Part shown: piece by piece, positions 7,886 through 62,664 of the stretch | Position numbering within the stretch: the stretch's first letter is position 1 | Layout: every line of letters begins with the position of its first letter | NCBI GenBank assembly: GCA_016186695.1 | Contig: JACPLC010000005.1 | Location: 852-64,851 of the forward strand | DNA length: 64,000 nt | Direction of reading: 5' to 3' | DNA from: Candidatus Kaiserbacteria bacterium | Lineage (GTDB): Bacteria; Patescibacteriota; Minisyncoccia; Phycocordibacterales; UBA2100 | Notes under the pieces: generated by a model | The model's database searches: none | What the model was told of the DNA's origin: nothing | What the model saw: only the letters and a program-made list of their open reading frames with translations | Translations under genes and position numbers: made by a program

Positions 7886-8824
7886 CTATATCGGGAACGC
7901 TTCGCCGTAGCTCTCTTCGTATCGCTTCTTCAATTCAGAAAGCGTGAACCGATGATTTTGTGTGCCCTGCTGCTCTACAGCGTACGCCGCAACAGCGCTA
8001 CCGATTTGTGCGGAAACCTTCGGAGACTCTCCCGCGAGATATCCCGCGATGAATCCTGCGCGGAACGCATCCCCTGCCCCCGTGGGATCGAGTACGTCGG
8101 AAACATGCACCGCCTTCACACGTTCGGTGGCTCCTTTGTGCATCAGGCGGGAGCCGCTTTCGCCGAGCGTTGCCACCACAAGCGGTGTGCGGGCGCAGAG
8201 CTCTTTTTCACTCCATCCCGTCTTTTGCGTGATGAGATCGATCTCATAGTCGTTGCCGAAGAGCCCTGCCGAGCCCTCTATCCCCTTTCGCAAATCGTCC
8301 GCGGAGAGGATCGGAATTTCTTGCGCCGGATCGTAAAAATACGGGATGCCATGCTCGCGATAATGGGCCGGCAATACACGCATGTCATCAGGATTTCCAG
8401 CCCCGACGATCGCGCATGCCGCACCTTCAGTTTCTGGAAGCGCTCCGTATGCCGCCTTCCCTGCTCCGAAGGAAAACGCCGCTATCTGGTTGTCAGCCTT
8501 GTCGGTGATGATGTAGGCGGACGACGTGAGTTCACTCGTATCGATATGCACGCTCTTCGTCGCGATTTTCTGCTCCTCGAGATATTTGCGATACGCTGCA
8601 AAATCAGAGCCTGCCGTCGAGATGATCTCCGGCTCATGTCCCAAAAGCTTAAGGTTGTAGGCAATATTGCCCGCGGTGCCGCCGAAATTTTCTTCTACGC
8701 CATCTACAGCGAAACTTACATTGATGGTGTGCAATTTGTGCGCCAAAAAATGGTCGCGAAAATGCCCCGGAAAATCCATGATGCGATCGTACGCAATCGA
8801 GCCGGAAACGATGACGCGGGACAT
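7886..8824 (-). CDS. PfkB-family carbohydrate/nucleoside kinase, probably adenosine kinase
   Basis: PfkB signatures (GGTAGN, DPTGAGDAF); adjacent to ahcY. Confidence 0.75.
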   Translation of the reverse strand: MSRVIVSGSIAYDRIMDFPGHFRDHFLAHKLHTINVSFAVDGVEENFGGTAGNIAYNLKLLGHEPEIISTAGSDFAAYRKYLEEQKIATKSVHIDTSELTSSAYIITDKADNQIAAFSFGAGKAAYGALPETEGAACAIVGAGNPDDMRVLPAHYREHGIPYFYDPAQEIPILSADDLRKGIEGSAGLFGNDYEIDLITQKTGWSEKELCARTPLVVATLGESGSRLMHKGATERVKAVHVSDVLDPTGAGDAFRAGFIAGYLAGESPKVSAQIGSAVAAYAVEQQGTQNHRFTLSELKKRYEESYGEAFPI

Positions 8825-8845
8825 GGCTCAATTATAGTCCAGAAC

Positions 8846-9343
8846 CTACCACGTACCCGTGTTTTGCATCGATGCCCATGGTTCTGCGAGAGGAAGCGGG
8901 TCGCCCATTTGGAGAAGTTCTATCGAGATGCCGTCGGGCGATTTGATGAACGCGAGCTTGCCGTCGCGGGGCGGGCGGTTGATGGTGACACCCTGCTTCG
9001 TCAACTTTTCGCAAAAGTCGTAGATGTTCTCGACGCCATAGGCGAGATGCCCGAAATTTCTACCGCCGGTGTATTCCTCCGGATCCCCGCCTGCGCCAGG
9101 GCTTCGGCGGGCAGGCCAGTTGTAGGTGAGCTCGAGCACGGGAGCTACGTACGTGCTCATCCCCATCTTTCGCTCTTTTGGCGCTGCGCCCACGTCGTCG
9201 CTTGGCGCTTTGAGAAAAACGTTCGTAAATCTTCCCTTCTCGTTGTCGTATCGATACACCTCTTCGAGCCCGAGCTTCCCACAATAGAAATCAATCGCCT
9301 CCTCGAGATTTTTCACTCTCACCATCGTGTGCAAATAGCGCAT
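8846..9343 (-). CDS. gloA: Glyoxalase I / VOC-family lyase
   Basis: 165 aa with a VOC fold pattern (HTMVRVKNLEEAIDFY...GHLAYGVENI). Confidence 0.65.
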   Translation of the reverse strand: MRYLHTMVRVKNLEEAIDFYCGKLGLEEVYRYDNEKGRFTNVFLKAPSDDVGAAPKERKMGMSTYVAPVLELTYNWPARRSPGAGGDPEEYTGGRNFGHLAYGVENIYDFCEKLTKQGVTINRPPRDGKLAFIKSPDGISIELLQMGDPLPLAEPWASMQNTGTW

Positions 9344-24108: not shown

Positions 24109-24179
24109 CGGGCCGTAGTATACCGGTAGTACACACGCTTCGGGTGCGTGTAGACCGGGTTCGATTCCCGGCGGCCCGA
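24109..24179 (+). tRNA. tRNA-Pro (CGG)
   Basis: Acceptor CGGGCCG/CGGCCCG, anticodon loop TTCGGGT. Confidence 0.8.
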
Positions 24180-24181
24180 CA

Positions 24182-24252
24182 CGGGATGTCGTATAGTGGT
24201 AGTACGCAAGCATGGGGTGCTTGTAGCCCGAGTTCGATTCTCGGCATCCCGA
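24182..24252 (+). tRNA. tRNA-Pro (GGG)
   Basis: Acceptor CGGGATG/CATCCCG, anticodon loop ATGGGGT. Confidence 0.8.
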
Positions 24253-40591: not shown

Positions 40592-40663
40592 TCCGGGGTA
40601 ACTCAATGGTAGAGTGACTCCCTGTTAAGGAGTAAGTTGTGGGTTCGAGTCCCACCCCCGGAG
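40592..40663 (+). tRNA. tRNA-Asn (GUU); integration target of an island
   Basis: Acceptor TCCGGGG/CCCCGGA, anticodon loop CTGTTAA, T-arm GTGGGTTCGAGTCCCAC. Confidence 0.85.
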
Positions 40664-42147
40664 CTAGGTGAGACAGCAGACAGTTTACGGATAGTGTCAT
40701 ACGGTTTTCGCAAGGCAAACCGTAGCTCTTTTCCTTTCACTGTCGAGTTCTGAAGTAAGTACGCTAGAATCTCCCGTTTTTCATCCGGTTCAGAACTTCC
40801 GAAGATTTCTCCGAAGCGTTTGGAGATGCTCAGCAGCGTCCCAACATGGATGTGATAGCGATGGTCGGCCTTCGTGTGTTGCTCCATCTCCGCATTCAGT
40901 CGATCCTGCGACTCCTTCAGTTCTCGTAATTTATTATCATACTCATCGGTGGTAATACTCCCGTCCAGTCGAAGGTCCAGTAGGCTTTGTATTCGCTTTT
41001 GGGCCTTGTCGTACTCCGCACGTATGCGTTTAACCTCGCGCTCGTAGAACACCGCCTCGCTATCGTGGCTCTGACGAAGTTCGGTTACCAACCGTTCGTG
41101 CACTTGGTCCGGGACGTTTTCGAATTCCTTGAAAAGCGCGTGGAGCGGTTTCAGGAGGTCCTCTTCCGACGTATATACTCGCTTGCAAATACCTTTCGCA
41201 TTCGTGCAGGAGTAGTAGATGTACTTGCCCTTCTTCAGTTCGGGGCTCATGAGACAGCCGCAATCTTCGCAGCGAAGTATTCCTTTCAGGGCAAACGGCT
41301 TCGAGAGTATTTTCGAACGCTTGTCGCCCCTGCCTTCACAGACGTCCCGGCATCTTTCGAACAGTTCTTGAGATATCAGACGTGCATATTTGTGCTTGTG
41401 TTCTCCGTGCTTCCTCGATTGCGCGAAACCGATGTAGAAGCGATCCTTCAGAATTCGCTCTACATTGCTACGCGACAACTTCTGGCCTTTGAGCCCTCGT
41501 AGGCCGAGCTTGGTTATCTCTATCCAGAGTGCGCGAATCGAATACGAACCTGAGGCATATAGCTCGAAAAGCTTCACGATCAGATGGGCGCGCTTCGGAT
41601 CCGGAACGATATCATTCAAGATAACTTTTCCTTCGGCATCCTTTTTCTTATCACGGATGTATCCGATCGGCGGGTGTCCGGTGAATTCTCCATTACGGCG
41701 CTTATGCTCGAACGTGCGCTTTACGTTGTCGCTCAACTGCAAGATATACGCATGTGCCATGAGTACTCCCATCTCCCAGCGGATGATGTCCGCGCTGTTG
41801 GAATGCCTGTGTATGACCAGATTCTCGCGGTAGAAGTGAATCTCGACCTTGCCCTCTTTCACTAACTCGTCCAAGTACACCATGTCCTTGAATGAACGCA
41901 TGAGGCGGTCGATCGTATCGAACACGACCGCCATACATTCGTTGGTGCGTTCCCCCTCTTTCACCACGCTTTCTAATGCCTCCCTGAACCGCTTACGCTC
42001 TCCACGAGTGGACGATTCTTCGATCTTGTAAGTCTTCCAATGCTCGAGACCTCCTTTTTGCTTCACGTAGTCCGAGACTCGCATGATTTGAGCTTCGTTC
42101 GAATCTTGCTCTTTGTCGGAAACGCGAGCGATGATTGCAGATTTCAT
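40603..42147 (-). mobile_element. Large serine recombinase (integrase)
   Basis: N-terminal resolvase domain with catalytic Ser (IIARVSDKEQ), a Cys-cluster zinc ribbon (CEDCGC...CTNAKGIC) and a coiled coil. The last 61 nt of the ORF are antisense to tRNA-Asn. Confidence 0.85.
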
Positions 42148-45829: not shown

Positions 45830-46765
45830 ATGGGACTCGATCCAGCACAGGGGTACAAAACGAGGCGTGGAAAGATGTTAATCGGCACTGCAGAAGATAT
45901 TCTCCGCTCTCCTGCAGCCAAGAGATACAAAGGTAAGATACAGCTCGTTTTCACATCACCACCCTTTCCGTTGAATAGGAAGAAGAAATACGGGAATCAT
46001 CAAGGGGAACGATACGTTGAATGGTTGGGAGATATGGCTCTTTTGTTGAAGGAGTACCTTACAGAGAATGGGTCAATCGTTATGGAGATGGGCAATGCGT
46101 GGCAACCTGGCGCTCCCGTCATGTCCACGTTGGCACTACGCTCGTTACTCGCTTTTCAGGACAAGGCAAATCTTCATCTCTGTCAGCAATTTATATGCTA
46201 TAACCCCGCTCGTTTGCCCGGCCCAGCGCAATGGGTTACGGTGGAGCGGGTTCGAGTAAAGGACTCTTTTACTCACGTTTGGTGGATGTCACCAAACGAG
46301 CGGCCCAAAGCCGATAATCGTCGGGTGTTAAAGGCTTACAGCAAAGCCATGTTGCAGCTGCTTGCCACAAAGAAATACAATGCCGGAAAGCGTCCTTCTG
46401 AGCATTCCATCGGTGCGAAATCGTTTCTGAAAAATAATGAGGGTGCTATTCCATCGAACGTCTTGACCTTGTCCAACACTCGAACCAACGACCAGTATCA
46501 GCTCTATTGTCGTACACACGGCTTGCAGGTGCATCCCGCTAGGATGCAAATGGATCTCGCAGATTTCTTCATCAAATTTCTGACAGAGCCGGGAGACCTA
46601 GTGTTGGATCCTTTTGCAGGAAGCAACACTACGGGGGCTTCCGCCGAGAGATTGAAACGTCGTTGGATATCGATAGAACCCAATCAAGAGTACGTGAAAG
46701 GTTCATATGGCAGGTTCGCAGAAGAAAACGAAAACAAAAAATATGACGACGCAAAATTTATTTAG
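45830..46765 (+). CDS. Beta-class DNA methyltransferase (N4-cytosine or N6-adenine)
   Basis: Motif IV VFTSPPF at the N-terminus and motif I DPFAGSNTTG near the C-terminus. This is the beta-class order, and SPPF favours m4C. Confidence 0.8.
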   Translation: MGLDPAQGYKTRRGKMLIGTAEDILRSPAAKRYKGKIQLVFTSPPFPLNRKKKYGNHQGERYVEWLGDMALLLKEYLTENGSIVMEMGNAWQPGAPVMSTLALRSLLAFQDKANLHLCQQFICYNPARLPGPAQWVTVERVRVKDSFTHVWWMSPNERPKADNRRVLKAYSKAMLQLLATKKYNAGKRPSEHSIGAKSFLKNNEGAIPSNVLTLSNTRTNDQYQLYCRTHGLQVHPARMQMDLADFFIKFLTEPGDLVLDPFAGSNTTGASAERLKRRWISIEPNQEYVKGSYGRFAEENENKKYDDAKFI

Positions 46766-49034
46766 CATCCTCTTGAAAGCCGACACGTGTGCCGACGTGG
46801 AGGCAGCGATTACTCAATTTGAGAATGAGCACTCTGCTGAATGTACGTGGGTTCCCGTTGGGAAAAAAGATAACAATTCCGGTCCAATCAATATTGCTGC
46901 GGATCCGGGACGTTCCCTTGTGGAGCGTCTAACCAACGCAGTGGACGCCGTTCTCGAACGTGAGCACGAAGTGCGCGGCGGAAGCCCCGTCTGTCGAACA
47001 CCGCGTGAGGCTGCAAGTGCATGGCTGGGTATCCCGTCTGGAGGTCTCAGTGAAATGACGCAGCAGGCTCGGCGTGATCATGCGAATAATGTGATCATTC
47101 GTATCACCGAGGGTGAAGGTAGCAGAGAGGCTCGAACTGTAGAAGTGAGAGATCAAGGAATTGGGATTACGCCCGATCGCGTACCGACTACCATTCTTAG
47201 CTTGAATGAAAGTAATAAATGGCAAAAGCATTATCTTGCCGGAACATTCGGGCAAGGAGGATCGAGTACGTTTGCGGCCTCAGACTACACTCTCATCGCA
47301 AGCCGATACAAGGACGAACCTGTCGTTGGGTTTACTGTGGTGAAGTATCGCGACTTACCCCCAGATCTATTTAAGACTGGCCATTATGTGTATCTCGTTC
47401 TCAACAGCGCAGTGCTTCAGGCGGAGATTCCCGTTGAGGAATTCACTCGCGGCACGTTAGTCAAACATTTCGGCTACGACCTCACTTCGTATTCATCTCC
47501 TTTAGGGCCAAATAGCATATACGGTTTGCTAAACCAAACGCTCTTTGATCCGATTCTACCAATCTGGCTGGATAGCCGAGTACACAACTACCGCCGTGTA
47601 ATCAAAGGCTCTCGTAACGCGCTAAATGGCGCACTCGACGAAGGAGATGAGGGTTCTGGTCCAAAACTGTCACACAGCGCGCGGATGTTCTACATAAATC
47701 TTGGGGAATTCGGACAAATCGGCGTTGAATATTGGGTGTTAGAACGACCGAGTAAACAGGACAAACGTCCGTCGGCGGCATTCGTGAACCCCACGAAACC
47801 AATCATCCTCACTATCAACGGTCAGAACCAAGAAGAGATGTCCGCACTGCTCATACGCAAAAATTCGGAATTGCCCTATCTCTCGCAACGATTGATTTGT
47901 CACGTTGATTGTAATGGCTTGCACGCCGATGCGAAACGCTCGCTCTTTTCCTCCACCCGAGAAGGTGCACGCCGGGGGCTCATACACGACCTCATACAAA
48001 AGGAGATTATTCGCATACTACGCTCGGATGACGAGCTTACCCGTCTCAATGAAGAAGCCCGCAAGCAAGGAGCACAGGAGATGGATCAAAATGCCGTACA
48101 GCAGATGCGAAAAGAAGTCGCCAGAATTCTACAGATGCAGGGAGTAAACGTAGGAGATATCGGCGGCCTTGAAGTATCGACTGGAGATGGGGGAGGGTTA
48201 GATCGACCTCGGAAACCGACTCCGCCACGGCCACCAGTCGTTCCTATACCTCTGAAGGAGCCACCAACGTATATAAAAATACTATGGGATGAGGGAGAGG
48301 AGATTCCTTTTCATCCCGAACAACGGCGGTATATAAGAATCGAAACAGATGCAGAAAGCCGCTATCACAGAGCAAACGCGGAATCATCGCCAACTAACTT
48401 CATTGTGTCTGGAGAAGGCCTCGTATTGAAAGGCACCACGTCGTTGCAGGGAGGCCGCATGCGTGCCGTTTTTGAAGCTTCACCTAACGCTGAAGTCGGC
48501 GAGGGCGGGACAATTCGCGTTGAAATGACACGAAAGGGCCTCCCGACACTTACGGATGAAAGAAAATTCAAATTTGTTGTGCCTCCGCCAGTTCGTCAAA
48601 GCGAAAGCAAGCTTACCTTGCCGCCCTTTAGAGTGCAGCCAGTAGAGGGACCCGAGGATGCTCGGTGGACGGGTTTAGGTTGGCCTGACGACATCAACAT
48701 TCTTGCTTCTTCAGCGGAAATGGAGAATGGCGAACTCGTTATTTATTACTCCACCGTATTTCCTCGCTTCGCTTCCGCAAGAACTGCCTTCGAAAATCGC
48801 GACGCCGCATTGGTTTCGTCGTTCATAAAGCGCTACGAAATCTGGCTCGCAGTTCATTCATTTCTCTGGCATCGAGATCAAAGTACAACAGAGCCCGCTA
48901 ATCAAACGGAAGAGATGATTGCCGCAGCCGAGGCGCATGAGCAGCAAGAACGCTGCCGCATAGCAACCCTCTCCACGCTCTTCGCATCACGTGAGGCAAG
49001 ATTTTCCCAGGCTCCGCTTGAAGAACACGAGTAG
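46743..49034 (+). CDS. Large GHKL-ATPase domain protein (MORC/paraMORC-like), candidate restriction/defence partner of the methyltransferase
   Basis: GHKL N-box (LTNAVDAV), G1 box (VRDQGIGI) and G2 box (GTFGQGGSS) in the first 200 aa, followed by about 550 aa with no recognised family. Overlaps the end of the MTase. Confidence 0.6.
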   Translation: MTTQNLFSILLKADTCADVEAAITQFENEHSAECTWVPVGKKDNNSGPINIAADPGRSLVERLTNAVDAVLEREHEVRGGSPVCRTPREAASAWLGIPSGGLSEMTQQARRDHANNVIIRITEGEGSREARTVEVRDQGIGITPDRVPTTILSLNESNKWQKHYLAGTFGQGGSSTFAASDYTLIASRYKDEPVVGFTVVKYRDLPPDLFKTGHYVYLVLNSAVLQAEIPVEEFTRGTLVKHFGYDLTSYSSPLGPNSIYGLLNQTLFDPILPIWLDSRVHNYRRVIKGSRNALNGALDEGDEGSGPKLSHSARMFYINLGEFGQIGVEYWVLERPSKQDKRPSAAFVNPTKPIILTINGQNQEEMSALLIRKNSELPYLSQRLICHVDCNGLHADAKRSLFSSTREGARRGLIHDLIQKEIIRILRSDDELTRLNEEARKQGAQEMDQNAVQQMRKEVARILQMQGVNVGDIGGLEVSTGDGGGLDRPRKPTPPRPPVVPIPLKEPPTYIKILWDEGEEIPFHPEQRRYIRIETDAESRYHRANAESSPTNFIVSGEGLVLKGTTSLQGGRMRAVFEASPNAEVGEGGTIRVEMTRKGLPTLTDERKFKFVVPPPVRQSESKLTLPPFRVQPVEGPEDARWTGLGWPDDINILASSAEMENGELVIYYSTVFPRFASARTAFENRDAALVSSFIKRYEIWLAVHSFLWHRDQSTTEPANQTEEMIAAAEAHEQQERCRIATLSTLFASREARFSQAPLEEHE

Positions 49035-49035
49035 T

Positions 49036-49710
49036 ATGAACGGAGAAAACGGAATCAACCGAGACATGATCTCCTACTACAAGGATCGTGCCCAAGAATA
49101 CGACAGAAAGGCGTACGACCCCCATGAACAACCCGAAAGACAAGCTGATATCAAGGAGGCCTCTCGGATACTTCAGGATGTTTTCACAGGCAAGAGTGTC
49201 CTCGAAATCGCAGCGGGACCGGGATTCTGGACCACGATAATCGCACAAGCAGCGAAGTCAATTACTGCAACCGACGTGAACGAAGCGGTCATCGATCTAG
49301 CCCGAAAAAAACAGTACCCTGAAGGCAAAGTGACGTTCCGTGTTGCCGACATGTACGCACTCGGAGACATGCCTCTACACGACGCATTGTTCGGAGGATT
49401 TATTTTCAGTCACATTCTCAAGCAGGACTACGACAAGTTTCTAGACGCCATCAATGGCTACGTCCGCCCCGGGGGGAGTGTGGTACTGATGGACAACAAC
49501 AGAACTCTTACTCCGAGACCGGCGGACAGGACTGATGAGCAAGGAAACAACTATCGGCTGCGAACACTCGAAGATGGAAGTAAACACGAAATCGTCAAGA
49601 ACTATCCAACCCAGGAGGAACTCAGGTCTGTGCTACGCAATCGCTCAACCGGTATGGATTTTAAGAACATGGAGCATTACTGGATTTTGACGTATCGAAC
49701 CAGTACCTGA
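49036..49710 (+). CDS. Class I SAM-dependent methyltransferase (paralogue 2)
   Basis: About 65% aa identity to the gene at 9361-10020. The start at MNGENG abuts the GHKL gene stop. Confidence 0.7.
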   Translation: MNGENGINRDMISYYKDRAQEYDRKAYDPHEQPERQADIKEASRILQDVFTGKSVLEIAAGPGFWTTIIAQAAKSITATDVNEAVIDLARKKQYPEGKVTFRVADMYALGDMPLHDALFGGFIFSHILKQDYDKFLDAINGYVRPGGSVVLMDNNRTLTPRPADRTDEQGNNYRLRTLEDGSKHEIVKNYPTQEELRSVLRNRSTGMDFKNMEHYWILTYRTST

Positions 49711-51086: not shown

Positions 51087-52889
51087 TCATGCACACATGC
51101 CCCCTCCTATGCCAAAGACATGTACCTGGACAGTGTAGGCACGTATTGCAGGTCGCGAACTGCTATAATCCAATCGACCGTCTTGAAGGCGCTTAGTTCT
51201 GAATGCGTCCAACGACCGGAGCAGAGCACCTGAAGTAGTCGGTAAATGACTGGGTCGGGTGTTAACAGAGGGCTTTTTTGAGGTTCGAGAATGTAATCGG
51301 ACTTCCGGAAGCTCTAACGGAGAAATTGGTGCAGGAATAGGCAAACCACCGCTTGGGACAACAGTTTCGGCGGTGTTTTGCATTGGTTCGAGAATTGCGT
51401 TGACCTTTGGCATCCAGTCAGCAAGGAAGCCGAAGGGTTTTGTGTACGATGGCACGACCTGTCCCTTGAGCACCGACACGCTGGAGAACGCATACGACAA
51501 GAGCAGTCGGCGTTCCTCCACGGTGGCTTTCTCACTATGGTAGATGTCCTGCGCACGCAAGGCAAGCTCGTGGATGGCGATACCGACCTTGTAATACTCC
51601 GTGTTGTCCGATTTGAGATTGTCGAGCGCCCCCACCAGACCTTCTTCTTCCTCGGTGAACTCTTTGAGCCGCTGGTCGTAAAACGGGACGGTAATCCTGC
51701 CGTCGAGCTTATCGTCGTACATCACACGCTTACGCTGCTGTATGCGCTCAAGGGAGTTGTTTATGGACTGCACCTGCGCGTCGTGGTATTCGATTTCCTC
51801 GCTGTGGCTCTCTTTGAGTGCCTTTGTGAGCACTGCAAGCACCTTCGCGCCACGAGGGGCTACAGCGACAGCGTGAGGCAACAGACGGGCTTCCAAGTCC
51901 TCCTGACGTATGTATTGCTTTTTCTCGCCCAGTTGGGCTTTACACTGCTTACAGCCGCCATACCACTGTCCCTTCTGCCGCTCCCACGTAACGGTTTTCT
52001 TGCACGCACCGCATAGCACCTTGCCCTGTAGCTCTTTGAGGTGCTTACCGTAGTACGGGCGCGGACGACCGCCATTCAGCTTCTCTCGAACCCCATCGAA
52101 CAGGTCTTTTGATATGAGCGGCTCGTGCTTCCCCTGATACAACACGTCCTTCCACAAAAACTTCCCGTAGTAAAACGGGTCTGAAAGTAGCCGGTGTACC
52201 GCGCTCTTTACCACCTTACTCCCGCCCCGACTGCGTAAGCCGAGAACGTACATTTTTTCAGTGAGCGCCTTGATGGAGTAACTTCCTGTTGCGTAGAGCG
52301 TGAACATCTGTTTGATGAGTGGAGCGACTTTCTCATCAACCACGTGGATTTTATGTCCCTTCTCACCGACGGACTTGTATCCCAGCGGCGGCTTCGTTGG
52401 CAGCCACCCCTGCGATATTTTTTCCTTCTGACCCTTCTGCACATTCTCTGACAACAATCTGACGTAATACTCGGCTGTAGCCACTTTTACACGCCACATA
52501 AACCATTCGTGCGATTTCGAGTTTTTGTGAAGCACGCACCCCTCTTTCGCGAGGTGTATCTGGTGATTTTCGTTCTCCATCAGCCACTGGTCAATGGCGG
52601 GTACATCGGCAAAGTTTCTAGTCAGGCGGTCTGTGGTCTCAACAATGATGACGGGGACTTTGCACTTACGCACATAGTTAAGCATTTCCTTGAAGGTCTT
52701 TCTGTCAATTTTACCGCTCGCACTTTCCGAAATCTGAAATACTTTCGAGATTTCGAAATTGTTTTCATTTCGCGATGCATATTCCTTCAAAAACTTCTCC
52801 TGTGCCGGAAGTGAATATCCCGTTTCTTCCTGCTCTTTTGAAGACACACGAGCGAATATAACAGCCAATGTTTTCTTTTTGGTTTCCAT
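51087..52889 (-). mobile_element. Large serine recombinase (second copy)
   Basis: AVIFARVSSKEQ catalytic region, a recombinase domain, a zinc ribbon (CGACKK...CKQCK) and a coiled coil; 600 aa. Confidence 0.85.
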
Positions 52890-53620: not shown

Positions 53621-54301
53621 CTACACTTTGATGACTTTGTATGCGGGATTTATGCGATACCCGCTATCTTTTTTTCCTTGAATGACCTCACCTCCATCAA
53701 TCTTGAGAAACTTTTTGATATTCTTTCTGATTTTAGCAATTTCGGTTCGTACCTGTTGCTTGTTCTTGCGTTCCAAACGCTCTGCAATCTCGCCAGTCAT
53801 ACGATACCCGTCGTTCTCGACAAGGTGGCTCAATATCCTGAACCTGTCGCTAGTAGCTTCCATCGCATAGCAGAGCTTGCCCTTCGGCTCGCACCAAAAG
53901 TTGCCGTCCTTATCAATATAAAGATGCGTTCCCGGCGGAGAAATTAACTTCTTTTCCCCGAACACCTTCTCCTCATATTCTTTGGCACGGGATAGAAAGT
54001 CCGTCGGGAATTGAATTGCCCAAGTGTCCTCCTGATACATATCTTCTTCGGCGGCGTCTTCTCTGCTATGGAATATTCTTCGCGTTATCAATCCCTGTTG
54101 CATAAATTGCTCTAGCACACGACGAATTTGCAGGTGATTGAGTTGGGCGACTTTTTCCAAGGCAGCGGCATCAAAATAGACGTAGTCGAATGGGATATAT
54201 CCAAGCTCGAACTCGTTCTGTAACACAGCGAGTATCGCAAGCAGTTTTTTACTCGCATCAGTCATAGTGGCTACAATACCTAACCTGCCAGTTTTTGCCA
54301 A
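53621..54301 (-). CDS. Putative winged-helix transcriptional regulator
   Basis: C-terminal OmpR-like wHTH pattern (GYRMTGEIAERLE...IRKNIKKFLKIDGGEVIQ...GYRI). Confidence 0.45.
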   Translation of the reverse strand: MAKTGRLGIVATMTDASKKLLAILAVLQNEFELGYIPFDYVYFDAAALEKVAQLNHLQIRRVLEQFMQQGLITRRIFHSREDAAEEDMYQEDTWAIQFPTDFLSRAKEYEEKVFGEKKLISPPGTHLYIDKDGNFWCEPKGKLCYAMEATSDRFRILSHLVENDGYRMTGEIAERLERKNKQQVRTEIAKIRKNIKKFLKIDGGEVIQGKKDSGYRINPAYKVIKV

Positions 54302-54313
54302 TCTGTATTACGA

Positions 54314-54514
54314 GTGATACACTTGCCGTCAATGGCAGAAAAAAACTACCGCATTGAGGATGCAAGGAAACTGCTTGGTGTGAGTGTGAGGTCTATGTAT
54401 CGGTACATCTCCGAAAAGAAGCTTCGGGCGACAAAAATCGGACACTGGCGTATCAGCGAGGCGGACATAAAAAGGTTCATTGCGGAGAGAACAAATATCA
54501 GGAAGCACAAATAA
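54314..54514 (+). CDS. Excisionase-family HTH (HTH_17-like) DNA-binding protein
   Basis: LLGVSVRSMYRYISEKKLRATKIGHWRISEADIKRF. Confidence 0.6.
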   Translation: MIHLPSMAEKNYRIEDARKLLGVSVRSMYRYISEKKLRATKIGHWRISEADIKRFIAERTNIRKHK

Positions 54515-54518
54515 GTGT

Positions 54519-54719
54519 ATGAAACACGACCACTGGGTAAACATTGAAGAAATCAAGCCGCCGATGGGCGAATTGAAATTTGCTGCCAAAGCTACGATAC
54601 ACGAAATCGGCAAGGGTGAAGTAGACCACGGTCTTGGAGAAGTGTGGGGCAAGACGCGGGAGGAAGCTACCCAAAAAATGAATGAGAAAATCAAGCAGTG
54701 GCTTGAGACACAACAATAA
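54519..54719 (+). CDS. Hypothetical small protein
   Basis: 66-aa ORF immediately upstream of mod. Confidence 0.3.
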   Translation: MKHDHWVNIEEIKPPMGELKFAAKATIHEIGKGEVDHGLGEVWGKTREEATQKMNEKIKQWLETQQ

Positions 54720-54721
54720 CT

Positions 54722-56510
54722 ATGGACGATAAGGAAATCGCACAGGAAAAAGAGAGGCAAATATTTCGACTTCAAAAGGAAAACGAAAAGCTAAAGAAAT
54801 CAATCAAGACCCAAAGATACGGGCTTGTTTGGGCGGACGTACCGGAAGCTTTCGATGATGATGTAGAAAACAAACTTCCTATATTTGAGGAAGTATCCAA
54901 GCTCGCAATAAAGAGCAAGGACGAAAAACCAACGCACATTTTGATTGAGGGTGATAACTATCACGCACTTACTTGTTTGAGCTACACACACAAGGGCAAG
55001 ATTGATGTCATTTACATAGACCCCCCCCTATAACACCGGCTCTGATGGTTTCCGCTACAAGGACAAACGTATTCTGGACAGGTATCCCGACGGCACAGAA
55101 GTACCAAAAGACCATCCATTCCGACACAGTTACTGGCTTTCTTTTATGAGCAAGAGGTTGGAACTTGCAAAAAGCTTGCTCAAAAAGAACGGGGCAATTT
55201 TTATTTCAATAAACGAAGATGAGTTCGCTCAACTCAAGCTACTGTGCGACCAAATATTCAATCCGGAAAACTATCTAGCGATGTTTACAATCAAGGTTCG
55301 ACACGAGGAGCGTATCCTCAAAGGCGATAAAGATTTTCACGAAGTTGTGGAGTACTTACTGATGTATCGGGCTAGTTCAGAATATAAAACGGTGAAAAAG
55401 ATTTACGATAACACTTCTCTCGACGAATATGTGTACCAAATAGTCGAAAAGACCAAGAGACCAAAAACAATCAAGCTCGGTAACAAAACCGTGGAGGTAT
55501 TCTCCCCTCAAGAATATGAGGTGGTAAAGGTGTCTTCGAACGCCAACAACCTAAAAAAGATAAACATTCGGGGTTCTATAAAGGAAGGCAACAGTAGTGG
55601 TCGTTTTTATATGGCTTACCTTGAACCGCTCAAAACAAAGGGCGTTTTATACAAAGTGTCCGATATGGGAAATGATAAATTCGGATACCGATATTTCCTC
55701 ACACCGATGAAGTTATCTCGCGTGAATGGTGATTACTTTCAGGGAGTGCCGTTGGGTATAAAGGATACGAAAGAAGTACCGTACCCGAACTATTTTGATT
55801 TTGAAAAGGACTTCAATTCAGTCGGCTATGAGGGTGGCGTTAATTTCGGTGGCGGCAAGAAACCCGTCAATTTTCTCAAGCGCATCATAGGTATCGGCTC
55901 TATGAACAAGTCGGCAGTGGTGCTGGACTTCTTCGCAGGTTCGGGAAGTACAGGAGAAGCGGTGATGAAAATGAACGAAGACGATAAGGGTACTCGCCAG
56001 TTCATTCTCATTACCAATAACTACGAACTCGTAAAAGATAAGGTCTATAAACCAATGGAGGAGGCGTGCTATCCTCGCATAAAAAATGTCATCAAGGGCT
56101 TCAATGGTAACAAAGGGGTTGGAAATTCTGCAAAGTACTACCGCACGGGGTTCGTCGGCAAACACAGTATCGCTGATGCAGATGATAGAGATAAGTTGCA
56201 ACTCGCGCATCACGCAGGAGAGATGCTTTCAGTTGCAGAAAATACACTTGAACTCGTGGAGGAAAATGAATACTGGCAAATCTTTGAGAGTAAAGACCTT
56301 TACACCGCCGTCTACTTTCGGGAGGAATACAACGAGTTTGATGATTTCATTGGTCGAGTTCGGAAGCTAAAAAAACCGGTATCCGTATATGTTTTTAGCT
56401 GGGAGGACGACCCATTCGTCGCGGATTTTGAGGACAATCCAAACATTACAGTAAAGACAATCCCGCAACCAATACTCGAAATCTATAAGCAAATCTATAA
56501 CCTCCTATGA
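54722..56510 (+). CDS. mod: Type III restriction-modification methyltransferase Mod, split by a frameshift at a poly-C tract
   Basis: N-terminal EGDNYHAL, then IYIDPP followed by a run of 8 C, after which YNTGSDGFRYKDKR continues in the +1 frame (ORF 55146-56510). Motif I DFFAGSGSTGEA lies near the C-terminus. With 7 C residues the protein would be a single product of about 596 aa. Confidence 0.8.
55021..55028 (+). repeat. Poly(C)8 homopolymeric tract inside the mod DPPY codons
   Basis: The sequence reads ata gac ccc ccc cta taa, which gives a premature stop. Seven C residues would restore gac ccc ccc tat aac acc (DPPYNT). Confidence 0.85.
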
Positions 56511-58897
56511 CCCTTGCGCCTCTCAAATTCCAAAGAGATGCCGTTGAAAATCTTACAGAGGTTTTTGTAAAGCTATGGAAGAAGACCGAAAGAAAACTAC
56601 CGATAGTGCTCAAATCTCCAACTGGTAGCGGCAAAACATTTATAACCGCCCTTTTAATTCGAGGTCTCAACCATCTACCGCAGTGGTCGGAAGATAAGGC
56701 GTTCATCTGGATTACCTTCAGCGATGAGATTGCAATGCAGAGCAAGGAAAAGTTCGGCAGATATTTTGAGAACAATCTCGAAAATAACACGCTTACCGTA
56801 CAGGACATCAATCGAGGCAAACTGTACGCAAACGATATTCTTTTCCTCAACTGGCAAAAAGTAGTCCAAGACAATGCGACTACCCGTCGTCTCAAATTAC
56901 GACGACCAGACAAGGAGGATGAAAGAAAAGAAAGTGGCAAATACTTTGAGGACTTTATCGAGGGTACTAAAGAAGAAGGACGAGAAATTGTCCTTGTTAT
57001 TGATGAGGCGCACAAGAACGTGGATACCGAGCTAGCACAACATATCGTATCAATGATAGACCCTAAAATTGTGCTTCACGTCTCTGCAACACCAGCTGAC
57101 GGCATAGTTGCAGAAGCCGCAGAACATAATAGCTTCGTTAAAGTAGACCGCGAAGAAGTCGTTGCAGAAGGACTTATCAAAGAGAGTATTGTTTTGCAGT
57201 CCGAAGAAGATTTGAAGAAAATGGGTGGTAAAGACCTTGATGAAGTTCTTCTGCAACTCGGAATAGACAAGCGAGAAACACTCGTAAAGGAGTACAAAAA
57301 ACTCGACAAAAATGTAAATCCTCTAGTTCTTATTCAGCTCCCGAACGACGACACTCGCCTTGTTGAAGCTGGCGAACGAACAAAAGAAGAAGTGGTGATG
57401 TCTTTTCTAGTCAAACAAGGCGTCAAGGAGCACAAAATTGCACGCTGGTTTGACGGGAAAAAGGAAAATATGGAGGGCATTACAGACAATGAAAGTGATG
57501 TCGATTTTATGCTTTTCAAGCAAGCCGCGGGTACGGGCTGGGATTGCCCGCGCGCATCCATTCTCGTGATGTTCAGAGAAATAACCTCAAACACTTTCTA
57601 CAAACAAACGGTCGGTCGCATCTTGCGAATGCCAGAACCACAGTTGAGAGACGATTACAAAAGCAGTCCTCTCCTTCGACGCGGCTACCTCTTCACCAAC
57701 TATCGGCGCAATCAGGTACAGATACCCGACCAAAATGACAACAATAAAGCCCAAACGCAGTCAGCGCACATCCGTTCCGGAGTACAAAACATTTCACTGC
57801 AATCCGACTACATTCCCCGTGTTGATTATGGCGACATTCCGCGCTCCTATAAATTCCAAGAAAGCTTCAGGAAATCGTTTGATGAGCATTTTGGTCTCGC
57901 GAAGGGCGACATACTCGGAAAGGCGCAGGAAAAATTAAAGAGTAAAAAACTTGACCTCGATGGCACTCTTCTGAACGCGATAGTAGCTGACGCCGAGTTT
58001 TCTGACTTCGACCAACTCGCATTCGAATTCGTGAAGAAAGGTAACGATGTTTCTCTTGAAATGTCAGTAAGCGATATTGAAAAGACCTTCAATTACCTCT
58101 GCTATCAGTTGCTCCAAGAACAGGAAGATGAACAGGCAAAATACGCTAACATTGCTCGTTCGTGGAGCGTCTTAAAATCAGCAATCCGTATCTGGTTCAA
58201 GGGCGTGCTGGGAGAAGATAGCTCATATTATTATCGCGTGTTCATCAAGGACATCCAAAAAGGTGCTGAAAGCGTGTTTCGACCTGCAATCACCAAAGCT
58301 CTCCGCGATTTCAAACCCATTGCACAGAAACTTATTGCTGACCGAAAGAAAGAGGTTGAGGAGAGAGAAAGTCCTGTCTTTACTGTTCAGTCAGAATATC
58401 AATACACAGACGACTATCGGGAAGTGCCGCAAAAACTTTGCGTCCTCGATACTTTCTATCTATTGTCTTCATATACTGGGCGCGATAACGAAATGAACTT
58501 CATCAAATACTTGGAGCAAAAGAAAGGAAAAATTGAATGGTGGTTCAAAAATGGCAATCAAGGCAAGGATTACTTCGCTGTTCGGTATATAAATTCGGAG
58601 ACGGGCAAAGAAGAACTATTTTATCCCGACTGGATTGTCCTTTTCAAGGACGGACGTATCGGCATATTTGACACAAAGAAAGGACGTACGGCTACTGATG
58701 CTGACACTGCCGATAAGGCAAGAGCTTTGCAAGCCAAAATAAAAGAATTCGGCAAAAAATATCTCGGCGGTATTGCGATTGAAGAAGCTGGTGTCTGGTA
58801 TTGCAACGATAGCTCCGAATACACATTCAAGGGGGGTCAGTCCGTCAATGACAGCAAGGGCTGGAAACCATTCGAGACGCTTTTTAATTATGTATGA
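56507..58897 (+). CDS. res: Type III restriction enzyme Res subunit (SF2 helicase plus nuclease)
   Basis: Walker A SPTGSGKT, DEAH box VIDEAH and later helicase motifs. ATGA overlap with the mod stop. Confidence 0.85.
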   Translation: MTLAPLKFQRDAVENLTEVFVKLWKKTERKLPIVLKSPTGSGKTFITALLIRGLNHLPQWSEDKAFIWITFSDEIAMQSKEKFGRYFENNLENNTLTVQDINRGKLYANDILFLNWQKVVQDNATTRRLKLRRPDKEDERKESGKYFEDFIEGTKEEGREIVLVIDEAHKNVDTELAQHIVSMIDPKIVLHVSATPADGIVAEAAEHNSFVKVDREEVVAEGLIKESIVLQSEEDLKKMGGKDLDEVLLQLGIDKRETLVKEYKKLDKNVNPLVLIQLPNDDTRLVEAGERTKEEVVMSFLVKQGVKEHKIARWFDGKKENMEGITDNESDVDFMLFKQAAGTGWDCPRASILVMFREITSNTFYKQTVGRILRMPEPQLRDDYKSSPLLRRGYLFTNYRRNQVQIPDQNDNNKAQTQSAHIRSGVQNISLQSDYIPRVDYGDIPRSYKFQESFRKSFDEHFGLAKGDILGKAQEKLKSKKLDLDGTLLNAIVADAEFSDFDQLAFEFVKKGNDVSLEMSVSDIEKTFNYLCYQLLQEQEDEQAKYANIARSWSVLKSAIRIWFKGVLGEDSSYYYRVFIKDIQKGAESVFRPAITKALRDFKPIAQKLIADRKKEVEERESPVFTVQSEYQYTDDYREVPQKLCVLDTFYLLSSYTGRDNEMNFIKYLEQKKGKIEWWFKNGNQGKDYFAVRYINSETGKEELFYPDWIVLFKDGRIGIFDTKKGRTATDADTADKARALQAKIKEFGKKYLGGIAIEEAGVWYCNDSSEYTFKGGQSVNDSKGWKPFETLFNYV

Positions 58898-59343
58898 AAC
58901 TCCTAACGGAAAAATTCGTCCAAGACAACATCATCGAATACCTATTCCGTAAGGGGTGGAGCAGAAATCTGCGGAGTAGGAATACTGACGAGCACGGCGT
59001 AGATATAAAGGTACGGAACAACAATTTTGCACGCTACTGGCTCATCGAGTGCAAGGGCGACGCCTCCAAGACAGCAAAGTATCCCCGCTCTCATCGTGAA
59101 GTATGCTTCAATCTCGCACTTGGACAAATCATCACGCGGATGAAAAGCGACGGGAAACGCGGCTATAAGTACGGGTATAAATATGGTGTCGGTTTCCCCG
59201 CGAGCTTCGAGGATTTGGTCGTCCGGCGCTTGCCGTCCAATGTCGCCGACAAGCTCAATCTTTATGTTTTCCTTGTAGATGGTAAAGGCAAGGTCGCACT
59301 CTATGACTGGAAAATGTTAAGAGTATTGCAATCCTCAAAATGA
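58894..59343 (+). CDS. Small PD-(D/E)xK-like (restriction endonuclease fold) protein
   Basis: GVDIKV ... YWLIECKG fits D ... E-x-K spacing. 149 aa. ATGA overlaps with both res and the OLD gene. Confidence 0.45.
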   Translation: MKLLTEKFVQDNIIEYLFRKGWSRNLRSRNTDEHGVDIKVRNNNFARYWLIECKGDASKTAKYPRSHREVCFNLALGQIITRMKSDGKRGYKYGYKYGVGFPASFEDLVVRRLPSNVADKLNLYVFLVDGKGKVALYDWKMLRVLQSSK

Positions 59344-60989
59344 AAATAACTCGACTGCTCATCAAAAACTTCAAGTCCTTCAAGTCAGAAAGGATAGATT
59401 TTCGCGGTTTGATGGCGTTCATAGGAGAGAACAATGCAGGAAAGTCGAACGTGCTAAAGGCGCTCGATTTGTTCTTCAAGGACACAAAGAAACTCGACGA
59501 GGAGTATTTCAACAACAGCGCAGAGCACATCGTCATTCAAGTTTGGTTCAATAATTTAAACGATGACGCGAAGGAAACATTTAAGAAATATCTGCTCGAT
59601 GACAACGAAACAGTAGTACTTAGAAAAGAGTATTCGTTCCACGACGAAGATATGACGTTTTCGGGCGTCATACTTGGTGATAAGTTAGATGCGAAAGATA
59701 AAAAGGATGCTGTAGAAATTCTCGATAAAACCGAGATAGAACCTTTCACCTCCACGGAAAAGACCTACTACTGGAAATCCAAACCGTTTGGCTGGTCAGC
59801 CATCGCAACCGGATATCTACCCGATTTTCTCTATGTCCCAGCAGTCAAAGACGCAAAAGAGGAGGTAAAAGTTGCAGACAAGTCGAGGTTCGGACAAATC
59901 ATAAATGCAATGCTTGGCAGCGTCCTCCAGAACGTTGATTTAGTACGCATCAACGAAGAGTTTACGAAACTTCTGATGGGTGAAAATTCTAATCAGGATG
60001 GGCGCATCGCGCAACTCAAAGAGTTTGAGACGATGTTGAGTGAAAAACTTTCCGCACAGATGCGTGGTACGACAATCAAGCTAGACATCACTCCACCAAC
60101 ACTGAAAGATGTTTTCCAGTCGGGTACAAAGATACTGGTAGATGATGGTGTCTCCACAGCAGTGGAAAATAAGGGGCACGGGCTACAGAGGTCGGTAATA
60201 TTCGTGATTTTTCGAGCATACGCAGACCTTCTTAAAAAGGAACAAGGCGAGAAAGCAAAAGCGCTCATATTTGGTATAGAAGAACCCGAGCTTTATCTGC
60301 ACCCCCAGATGCAGAGGTCAATGTTCAGCATCCTGAAAGAGGTTGCGCAAACAGACCAAGTAGTATTCACGACACACTCAAGCTTCTTCGTGGATATGGC
60401 TAACTATCAGTCAATAGGTATAGTCGTCAAGAAAGATATCGAGACAGGCACGAAAATCATCCAGCACCAAGAGGATATATTTCCGCAGAGCGAAGAAAAA
60501 AAGCAGTTTCGACTACTCACAGAGTTTGACCCAGAAAGAAGTGAACTTTTCTTTGGGAAGAAAGTTGTGCTAGTCGAGGGAGATACAGAGAAGGTGGTGT
60601 TACCGATTATCGCAACCAAAATCAATCCAAAATATGTCTTCTACGACTACGGTATTACCGTCGTTGAGTGTGCGAGTAAGGAAATGATGCCCTTCTTCGT
60701 GAAAGTGCTCAACGCTTTTCGTATCCCATACACCGCTATCTATGACAGCGACAATGCCAACAGCGAGGAAAGTAAAAGGATAGAAGCAGAGGTTGCATCA
60801 TCTGGCGGTATGGGGCGAACTGAAATCATTGAACCTGACTTTGAGAAAATGTGTGCCGGTGATGGAGTAGCTATACCAACTGGCGGCAGTAAACCCTTTA
60901 AGGCGTTCAAGTGTTTCAAGGAGCTTGAAGCGGAAAAGATACCGAAACGGCTCAGAGAAATCATCGAAAAAATCTTTACCGAAGCATAA
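59340..60989 (+). CDS. OLD-family ATP-dependent nuclease (ABC ATPase plus TOPRIM)
   Basis: Walker A GENNAGKSN, Walker B LIFGIEEPELYLHPQ, H-loop FTTHS and TOPRIM VVLVEGDTEKVVLPII ... YDSDN; 549 aa. Confidence 0.75.
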   Translation: MKITRLLIKNFKSFKSERIDFRGLMAFIGENNAGKSNVLKALDLFFKDTKKLDEEYFNNSAEHIVIQVWFNNLNDDAKETFKKYLLDDNETVVLRKEYSFHDEDMTFSGVILGDKLDAKDKKDAVEILDKTEIEPFTSTEKTYYWKSKPFGWSAIATGYLPDFLYVPAVKDAKEEVKVADKSRFGQIINAMLGSVLQNVDLVRINEEFTKLLMGENSNQDGRIAQLKEFETMLSEKLSAQMRGTTIKLDITPPTLKDVFQSGTKILVDDGVSTAVENKGHGLQRSVIFVIFRAYADLLKKEQGEKAKALIFGIEEPELYLHPQMQRSMFSILKEVAQTDQVVFTTHSSFFVDMANYQSIGIVVKKDIETGTKIIQHQEDIFPQSEEKKQFRLLTEFDPERSELFFGKKVVLVEGDTEKVVLPIIATKINPKYVFYDYGITVVECASKEMMPFFVKVLNAFRIPYTAIYDSDNANSEESKRIEAEVASSGGMGRTEIIEPDFEKMCAGDGVAIPTGGSKPFKAFKCFKELEAEKIPKRLREIIEKIFTEA

Positions 60990-61585
60990 CGTTCTTGAAT
61001 GTAATGTAAGTAGAGTTATGGCACATAGAAGAAGTAAGAAAAGCGAGCCACTCTCGGAGGAGACGATACAAGCACTGATACAACTCGGCGCAGTTTTACG
61101 ACCTGTCGTCAACCGTCTCGTAACCGAGGGAAAGGCGAAAGTAGTGAATGGAAAAATGATTTTCCTCACCAAAAATGCTAACGATTGAAGAAATCAGAGA
61201 CACCCTGCCGGATAGGGGCAAAGACCTGTCCGACGAGCAGCTCTTGAAGCTCCGCGATGATATGTACGGGCTTGCACAGATTTGTTTCGACGTATGGCTA
61301 GCCAAGAAAAATAAAAACGGAGTAAAATCGCAGGATGACGCATCGAACGACCGATGACATACCGGAGGACGAGGAGACCCGCCGCCTGATGCGCGAGCAC
61401 GAGGTGGATGCTGACACTGCCGAGAAAGCGCAGGAGCTTATTGACGAAGGAATGGACGAGGACGAAGCGATTGAACTTGCCGGCGAACTTTGATAGAGTA
61501 CACGCAATGCAACGGAGGAACTTTAGATAGCCGCCCGTAAACAGCCGCACGCCTTGCGGTTGTTTTGGGTGGCTTTTCTATTTTG

Positions 61586-61656
61586 CCTTCGTAGCTCAAC
61601 GGCAGAGCGCACCTCCGAAACGGGCGAGATGGTGGTTCAACTCCACCCGAAGGCAC
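61586..61656 (+). tRNA. tRNA-like gene with a non-canonical anticodon arm, possibly tRNA-Phe (GAA)
   Basis: Perfect acceptor (GCCTTCG/CGAAGGC), D-arm and T-arm (GGTGGTTCAACTCCACC). The anticodon stem has an A:C mismatch and the loop reads CCGAAAC, with C33 in place of U. Confidence 0.5.
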
Positions 61657-61659
61657 ACG

Positions 61660-61732
61660 CCCTCGTAGCTCAATGGACAGAGCGAGACGCTTCTATCGTC
61701 AAGGTTGCAGGTTCAAGTCCTGCCGAGGGCAC
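61660..61732 (+). tRNA. tRNA-Arg (UCU)
   Basis: Acceptor GCCCTCG/CGAGGGC, anticodon loop CTTCTAT, T-arm GCAGGTTCAAGTCCTGC. Confidence 0.8.
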
Positions 61733-62664
61733 TAGCTAATCGCAAACCTCTCCATCGTCTGAAAGACCCGCTCCGATTTCTCTTTCACCGAAGTTTCGTC
61801 GTCATACACGATGAGCATTTCCATCGAGCGGTGGCGGCTGAACTTCCGCACGTCCCGCACATCCATAGTTTTGAGTAGTTCGGTAATGTAGAAGTGCCGG
61901 AAGCCGTGCACTGTTTTCTCAATGCCAAGCTCTTTGCATAGCCCTCCAACCTCTCTTTTTATCGTCATCGTGCTCATCCGCTCGGTCTTCCGGTTGCCCA
62001 AGCTCCTGAACAACGCCCCATCGGTGAGTTTATGGATTTTCAGGTACTCCTTGAGCGCCTTGACCGTCGTCGGTGCGAGATAGATTGCTTCTTTATCATC
62101 CTCGCCCTTGCCCTGAACGTACGCGACCTTCCGGTGCAGTTTTACATCTTCCACGTCCAGCCGGACAATTTCAATCTGCCGTAGCCCTTGAAACGCCAAT
62201 AATGAAAACAGCGCCCGCAGGCGACTGTTTCTCGGCGTGTTTGGGAGATATTTGAGCTTCACGCCAAGCAAAAGTATTTCGTTATCAGTAAGCCCCTGCC
62301 GTCTATGTCTTTTCCTCTGTCTGAAAAACTTTACGCCTTGCACGACGCCAAGTGGTATCATCCCTCGCCGTTCCAACTCTTTGAGCAAGACCCTCGCCGT
62401 CGCAAGATATTTGTTTTTCGTGGACACGCTGTAGTCCGTGCGTTCGAGGTGTCGCTTGAACGACAGCAAGCTCTCCCGATTGAAGCCGTGCGAGTGAACG
62501 TATGAAAGAAAAAGACCTACCCGCGCGGAGTAGTCCTTTCTCGTGGTCTCGGAAACATCAAGACCGTCAAATATCCAGCCGGCGTTTGCCCTCGGCTTAC
62601 GTATGACGCTTGGTAGCTTCATTTTCATATTCGATGTGGACGACACGTAAGCCCTTCTCCTCAA
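61732..62664 (-). mobile_element. Tyrosine recombinase / phage-type integrase abutting the tRNA-Arg 3' end
   Basis: Catalytic C-terminus with R...HGFRHF...LIVYDD. The stop lies next to the tRNA 3' end. The true start is probably an internal Met (MKLPSV) at about 62622. Confidence 0.8.

Follow-up and report, generated by a model that had tools for sequence, protein, structure and literature searches.

A one-base poly(C) frameshift within the catalytic motif of a Type III mod gene from Candidatus Kaiserbacteria, probably a recent insertion

We analysed a window of 64,000 nucleotides (64 kb), whose proteins match a Candidatus Kaiserbacteria MAG, in agreement with the Patescibacteria setting that a preliminary description of this DNA had proposed. 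On its plus strand the window carries an operon that begins with an HTH_17 (MerR/excisionase-type) gene of 60 aa (54332..54514) and a 66-aa ORF with no assigned function (54519..54719), and continues with a Type III mod gene that is split between two reading frames (54722..55033 and 55020..56510). Directly downstream of mod lies res (56507..58897), which encodes a 796-aa Type III restriction subunit of the ResIII/SF2 helicase type (PF04851 ResIII, 1e-19; PADLOC REase_III). It is followed by the gene for a 149-aa protein, p149 (58894..59343), and by a gene for a 549-aa OLD-family ATPase/TOPRIM nuclease (59340..60989; AAA_15 and OLD-like_TOPRIM; PADLOC Old, 6e-90). The res, p149 and OLD genes are all intact. 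The mod-res, res-p149 and p149-OLD junctions are 4-nt overlaps of the ATGA type, with p149 sharing 4 nt with res at its start and 4 nt with OLD at its end, and no Shine-Dalgarno-like motif was seen ahead of the overlapping starts of the operon, including the res ATG. The sole decent promoter-like site (54295-54323) is found upstream of the HTH_17 gene and the 66-aa ORF. Homologues of the HTH_17 protein (33-41% identity) stand upstream of mod in the closest relatives (loci L005, L006, L054-L059 and L113), and this protein may be the controller of the restriction-modification (R-M) operon.

The operon block (~52 to 61.5 kb) has a GC content of 44%, compared with about 54% in the rest of the window. 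On one side it is bordered by a large serine recombinase gene (51087-52889, minus strand), the second serine recombinase of the window after one at 40603-42147 (minus strand) that abuts a tRNA-Asn gene. On the other side lie tRNA-Phe and tRNA-Arg (61585-61732), followed by a tyrosine integrase gene (61732-62664, minus strand). The region 40592-62664 as a whole is a mosaic of mobile and defence DNA. It includes a second methylase module (45830-49710), in which PADLOC recognises a Type II N6/N4 methyltransferase (MTase_II, 2e-88). The module also has a protein of 775 aa that matches no family and is a candidate for the restriction or effector partner, together with a SAM methyltransferase that gave a mad2-like match; an HTH/ImmA-type (Peptidase_M78) pair follows. 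Two Logan contigs (L001 and L002) both stop at 61534, just ahead of tRNA-Phe, which suggests an island boundary or a strain-variable one; a search for att-type direct repeats delimiting the island returned only short, chance-level matches. Elsewhere in the window, genes for tRNA-Pro(CGG) and tRNA-Pro(GGG) are adjacent at 24109-24252. The p149 protein had no Pfam, NCBIfam or PADLOC match, and its 90%-identity cluster comprises 77 members across Paceibacteria (Nomurabacteria, Zambryskibacteria and others). Since p149 and OLD adjoin mod-res in none of the 129 homologous loci that we fetched, they are probably a defence module of two genes in its own right, appended to the operon.

The 5' fragment of mod encodes 103 aa ending in ...VIYIDPPL* and is recorded at NCBI as MBI2612809.1 (HYW59_03315), annotated 'hypothetical protein'. 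Its last codons (55019-55033) read GAC CCC CCC CTA TAA, that is, D P P L stop, and contain a poly(C)8 tract (55021..55028, plus strand) composed of the third base of the Asp codon GAC, the two Pro codons CCC of motif IV and one extra C. The 3' part lies in the +1 frame, which is open from 55020 to its stop at 56510, begins with TPPYNTGSDG... and carries the target recognition domain (TRD) and motif I (FAGSGSTG, encoded at 55932-55955). The first start codon in this frame is an ATG at 55146, from which a 454-aa ORF (P0020) was called. Thus the break within the DPPY codons was located correctly from the outset. Deletion of one C fuses 54722-56510 into a 595-aa Mod with DPPYNTG at residues 100-106 and FAGSGSTG at residues 404-411, and the corrected protein matches PF01555 N6_N4_Mtase (E = 2e-29) and PADLOC MTase_III (5e-37). 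After removal of one C, DPPY therefore lies N-terminal to the TRD and to motif I (FxGxG), as in a Type III Mod of the N6-adenine methyltransferase kind; the ORF as sequenced is broken. Together with a res gene whose start overlaps the mod stop, this bears out the original assignment to Type III. The accompanying proposal that either C7 or C10 restores an intact Mod holds for C7. With C10 the frame is likewise open, over 596 aa, but motif IV becomes DPPPY and is thereby disrupted, which leaves C7 as the only length with the native catalytic motif. For annotation, one mod gene accounts for both the 103-aa 'hypothetical protein' and the 454-aa ORF, which are its two halves. In the NCBI MAG the 5' fragment and Res bear consecutive accession numbers (MBI2612809 and MBI2612810), which evidently leaves the 3' part of mod without a protein entry in that assembly.

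Indel errors classically fall in homopolymers, and a sequencing or assembly artefact over a true C7 genome with an intact mod would produce the same picture. However, the 103-aa product specific to C8 is present in seven separately assembled Logan runs (SRR12113384, 385, 420, 422, 424, 430 and 431) and in the independently assembled NCBI Candidatus Kaiserbacteria MAG. In the contigs obtained from six of the seven runs the tract is C8, and they match the window at 100% identity over 1.1-16.4 kb; such flanks indicate accurate reads. At the consensus level, the tract length is C8 in all eight assemblies with the locus (seven SRA runs and the MAG). A look-up of the exact proteins that C6, C7, C9 and C10 alleles would encode found none of them in a collection of 15 billion proteins, and the C7 product occurs in no assembly; nor did we find any near-identical mod between 83% and 100% identity, the closest full-length relative being 83% identical at the aa level. 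All of the data come from a single project, which we take to be BioProject PRJNA640378 (He et al. 2021, groundwater). A consensus homopolymer error repeated across separate assemblies of different runs is very unlikely, and we regard an artefact as the origin of the eighth C as extremely improbable. The assemblies show zero SNPs over 16 kb and therefore probably sample one clonal population, so that they are not independent tests of tract stability and say little on low-frequency tract variants.

The C8 tract is notable for its location, not for existing. It is the sole G/C homopolymer of at least 7 bases within the 64 kb window, and C or G runs of this length are not over-represented there (2 overlapping matches vs 3.6 +/- 2.3 in dinucleotide-preserving shuffles). 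The Asp-Pro-Pro codons alone already dictate C-CC-CC, and GAC CCC CCC is expected at ~2% of DPP sites given the island's own codon frequencies; an ancestral C7 would thus be an unremarkable synonymous accident. CCC CCC is used at 0/20 Pro-Pro dipeptides in 21 long host ORFs sampled from window positions 1-44000, which, together with the lack of any other G/C run of at least 7 bases in the window, fits a genome that avoids G/C homopolymers.

Tract length in orthologous mod genes, a comparison that the preliminary description had called for, gave no sign of a maintained repeat. The 129 homologous loci, 49 from species-representative genomes and 80 from metagenomes, span Patescibacteria, Bacteroidota, Omnitrophota, Spirochaetota, Bacillota and other groups, and the source genome is not among them. 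At their 125 DPPYNT sites, no C run reached 7, and thus C8 was absent; the maximum was 6 (GAC CCC CCN), seen at 9 sites. The closest relative (L054, 83% aa identity) has GAC CCG CCT TAC, and the next-closest have GAC CCG CCC, GAC CCA CCA and GAT CCG CCG. In all close relatives mod is one unbroken ORF followed by res, and the mod-res pairing is present in most relatives whose contig reaches downstream. The Res protein can be aligned from end to end, at 63-72% identity, with its counterparts in those close relatives that have the whole gene on the contig. Among 2.9 million viral contigs, we found five intact GAC-C7-TAYAAYAC sites and no C8 lesion at DPPYN. Two further loci were considered as parallel frameshifts and rejected: L031 (Marinilabiliaceae MAG, 8001-9038) has a mod without its N-terminal part, including DPPY, and is a truncated or pseudogene copy, and in L034 (Lachnospiraceae MAG) motif IV reads DFPY with no frameshift.

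Apart from the extra C, no pseudogene decay was seen in mod by any of three measures. The corrected Mod keeps every invariant column of a 34-sequence alignment, and it has 2 private deviations at near-invariant columns, compared with 0-5 in the 16 closest intact relatives. In a relative-rate check its mean identity to outgroups was 65.7%, vs 63.6-67.1% for the relatives. Either the frameshift is therefore young relative to protein divergence or it is reversible. Without secondary lesions, a switch held OFF fits as well as a very recent loss. Any 8-base G/C run mutates faster than ordinary sequence, and a reversible OFF state and a dead gene are inseparable from consensus assemblies alone.

We consider it probable that a genuine and recent +1 C insertion in a natural C7 run has silenced a horizontally acquired Type III mod. 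R-M genes are often lost from mobile DNA of this kind. In the sequence of events that we envisage, the ancestral state would have been GAC CCC CCC, the C7 run of the Asp-Pro-Pro of motif IV, and one C would have been gained at this slippery hot spot in the recent past to give C8. Translation from the mod ATG would then end at IDPPL*, ahead of the catalytic Tyr, so that no active methyltransferase would be made. The tract, being a hot spot of mutation, may also revert to C7.

A mod that is OFF beside a translationally coupled res and OLD had been thought to pose a puzzle of self-restriction. To our knowledge, OLD-family nucleases do not depend on methylation, so that the OLD gene would pose no such threat. 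The res start is coupled to the 3' frame of mod, which would be out of reach for ribosomes that initiate at the mod ATG. Site recognition in Type III systems is the task of Mod, which guides Res, and Res is more abundant when Mod is expressed, probably because Mod stabilises it (PMC3874151). Res would thus be silent as well, being dependent on Mod for both site recognition and stability. With Res dependent on Mod and res coupled to an untranslated frame, the entire Type III system is probably OFF, in which case no self-restriction would arise and the puzzle dissolves. If the insertion is an ordinary silencing mutation, this Type III system is not to be counted as active, and the locus is simply a null allele, still young, of an R-M system gained by horizontal transfer.

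The preliminary description had favoured a dedicated phase-variation switch, that is, a true contingency locus in which slipped-strand mispairing toggles C7 (ON) and C8 or C6 (OFF), and with it methylation and restriction or a phasevarion, and the sampled population is OFF. The position of the frameshift, exactly in a homopolymer where one step gives a perfect gene, speaks for this, as does the otherwise undamaged state of mod and res. It is well established that homopolymers and simple sequence repeats (SSRs) switch Type III mod genes, with candidates also in environmental species (PMC5909438), and in Mycoplasma the switching of CpG methylases relies on poly(G) tracts of 6-11 bases that lie mid-gene (PMC9465063). 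In the survey of Atack et al. 2018, by contrast, a Type III mod was taken as phase-variable only if its mononucleotide tract had at least 9 bases, although shorter tracts may vary (PMC5909438); the tract here has 8, and its ON length would be only 7. Length was invariant at the consensus level across the eight assemblies, and the ON allele is not on record. No relative keeps the repeat (0/125 sites with a run of at least 7). The tract also lies inside the catalytic motif, where DPPPY at C10 leaves a single ON length. G/C homopolymers are not enriched in the window, and the 20 Pro-Pro pairs of the sampled host ORFs never use CCC CCC. Such a contingency locus is in our view unlikely, and a selected, regularly switching one is weakly supported and not favoured by this evidence.

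Some full-length Mod might nevertheless be made from the C8 allele, either by a +1 slip of tRNA-Pro on CCC-C or by RNA-polymerase slippage. DPP is a strong stalling motif. A +1 slip may be aided by stalling at Asp-Pro-Pro and by what comes next, the rare CUA codon (5% of Leu codons across the sampled host ORFs) and then UAA; the +1 frame reads TPPYNTG. Since both frames read Pro-Pro across the tract, a slip anywhere within it would give the native DPPY. [quoted passage not shown] The tRNA-Pro(GGG), which reads CCC and is among the tRNAs that slip +1 on CCC-C (PMC4519876), is encoded in the window. Yet the expected yield is about 1% or less, and the arrangement occurs in no relative and is hence neither programmed nor inherited. 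By comparison with programmed +1 frameshifting of the prfB type, the slippery CCC-C and the rare CUA are present, whereas an upstream SD-like stimulator, retention in orthologues and any conserved recoding signal are absent. We therefore hold recoding on the C8 allele to be highly improbable.

A working ON/OFF switch of restriction and methylation, set in the catalytic-motif codons of a mod gene of an episymbiotic CPR bacterium (Kaiserbacteria), with an OFF state that may be leaky through the +1 tRNA-Pro slip, is on these grounds decidedly unlikely. If the switch were true, Patescibacteria would gain their first reported epigenetic or defence switch under phase variation, and stochastic epigenetic and defence switching, known so far from host-adapted pathogens and mycoplasmas, would reach ultra-small groundwater symbionts. 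A literature search for phase variation in Patescibacteria found no report, which upholds the earlier statement that it is undocumented there. The insertion in a C7 run that we favour belongs to a familiar class, homopolymer frameshifts in Type III mod genes being well known; its setting in a groundwater CPR bacterium is new.

The architecture of the operon resembles that of EcoP1I and EcoP15I, in which a beta class Mod (motif IV, TRD, motif I) is followed by an SF2-helicase Res and both recognition and the stability of Res require Mod. In contrast to these systems, to which the sequence is distant (family-level matches only), the operon described here has an HTH gene upstream and the p149 and OLD module downstream. 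The locus also resembles the phasevarion mod genes (modA, modB and modD of Haemophilus and Neisseria; modH, modJ and modL of Helicobacter pylori, with G[n] tracts), in that a Type III mod ORF is broken by a change in repeat length (PMC5909438; PMC3874151), one-step slippage would restore the frame and a mod-res operon is present. Unlike them, it has a tract below the threshold of at least 9 bases (8, with ON at 7), and this tract lies in the DPPY codons and not in a length-tolerant 5' region. It is furthermore shared with no relative and shows no length polymorphism, res is intact, and the host is a groundwater CPR bacterium and not a host-adapted pathogen. The CpG methyltransferases of Mycoplasma agalactiae offer a further parallel, as a short homopolymer in the middle of the ORF (6-11 bases there) leads to truncated products (PMC9465063). 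In M. agalactiae, however, every strain has the tract, with lengths that differ from strain to strain and within strains (PMC9465063), whereas here a single length is private to one lineage. Finally, the locus shares with ordinary R-M frameshift pseudogenes a single homopolymer indel in a horizontally acquired, low-GC defence island, and differs from them in showing no secondary decay, so that the lesion is either very young or reversible.
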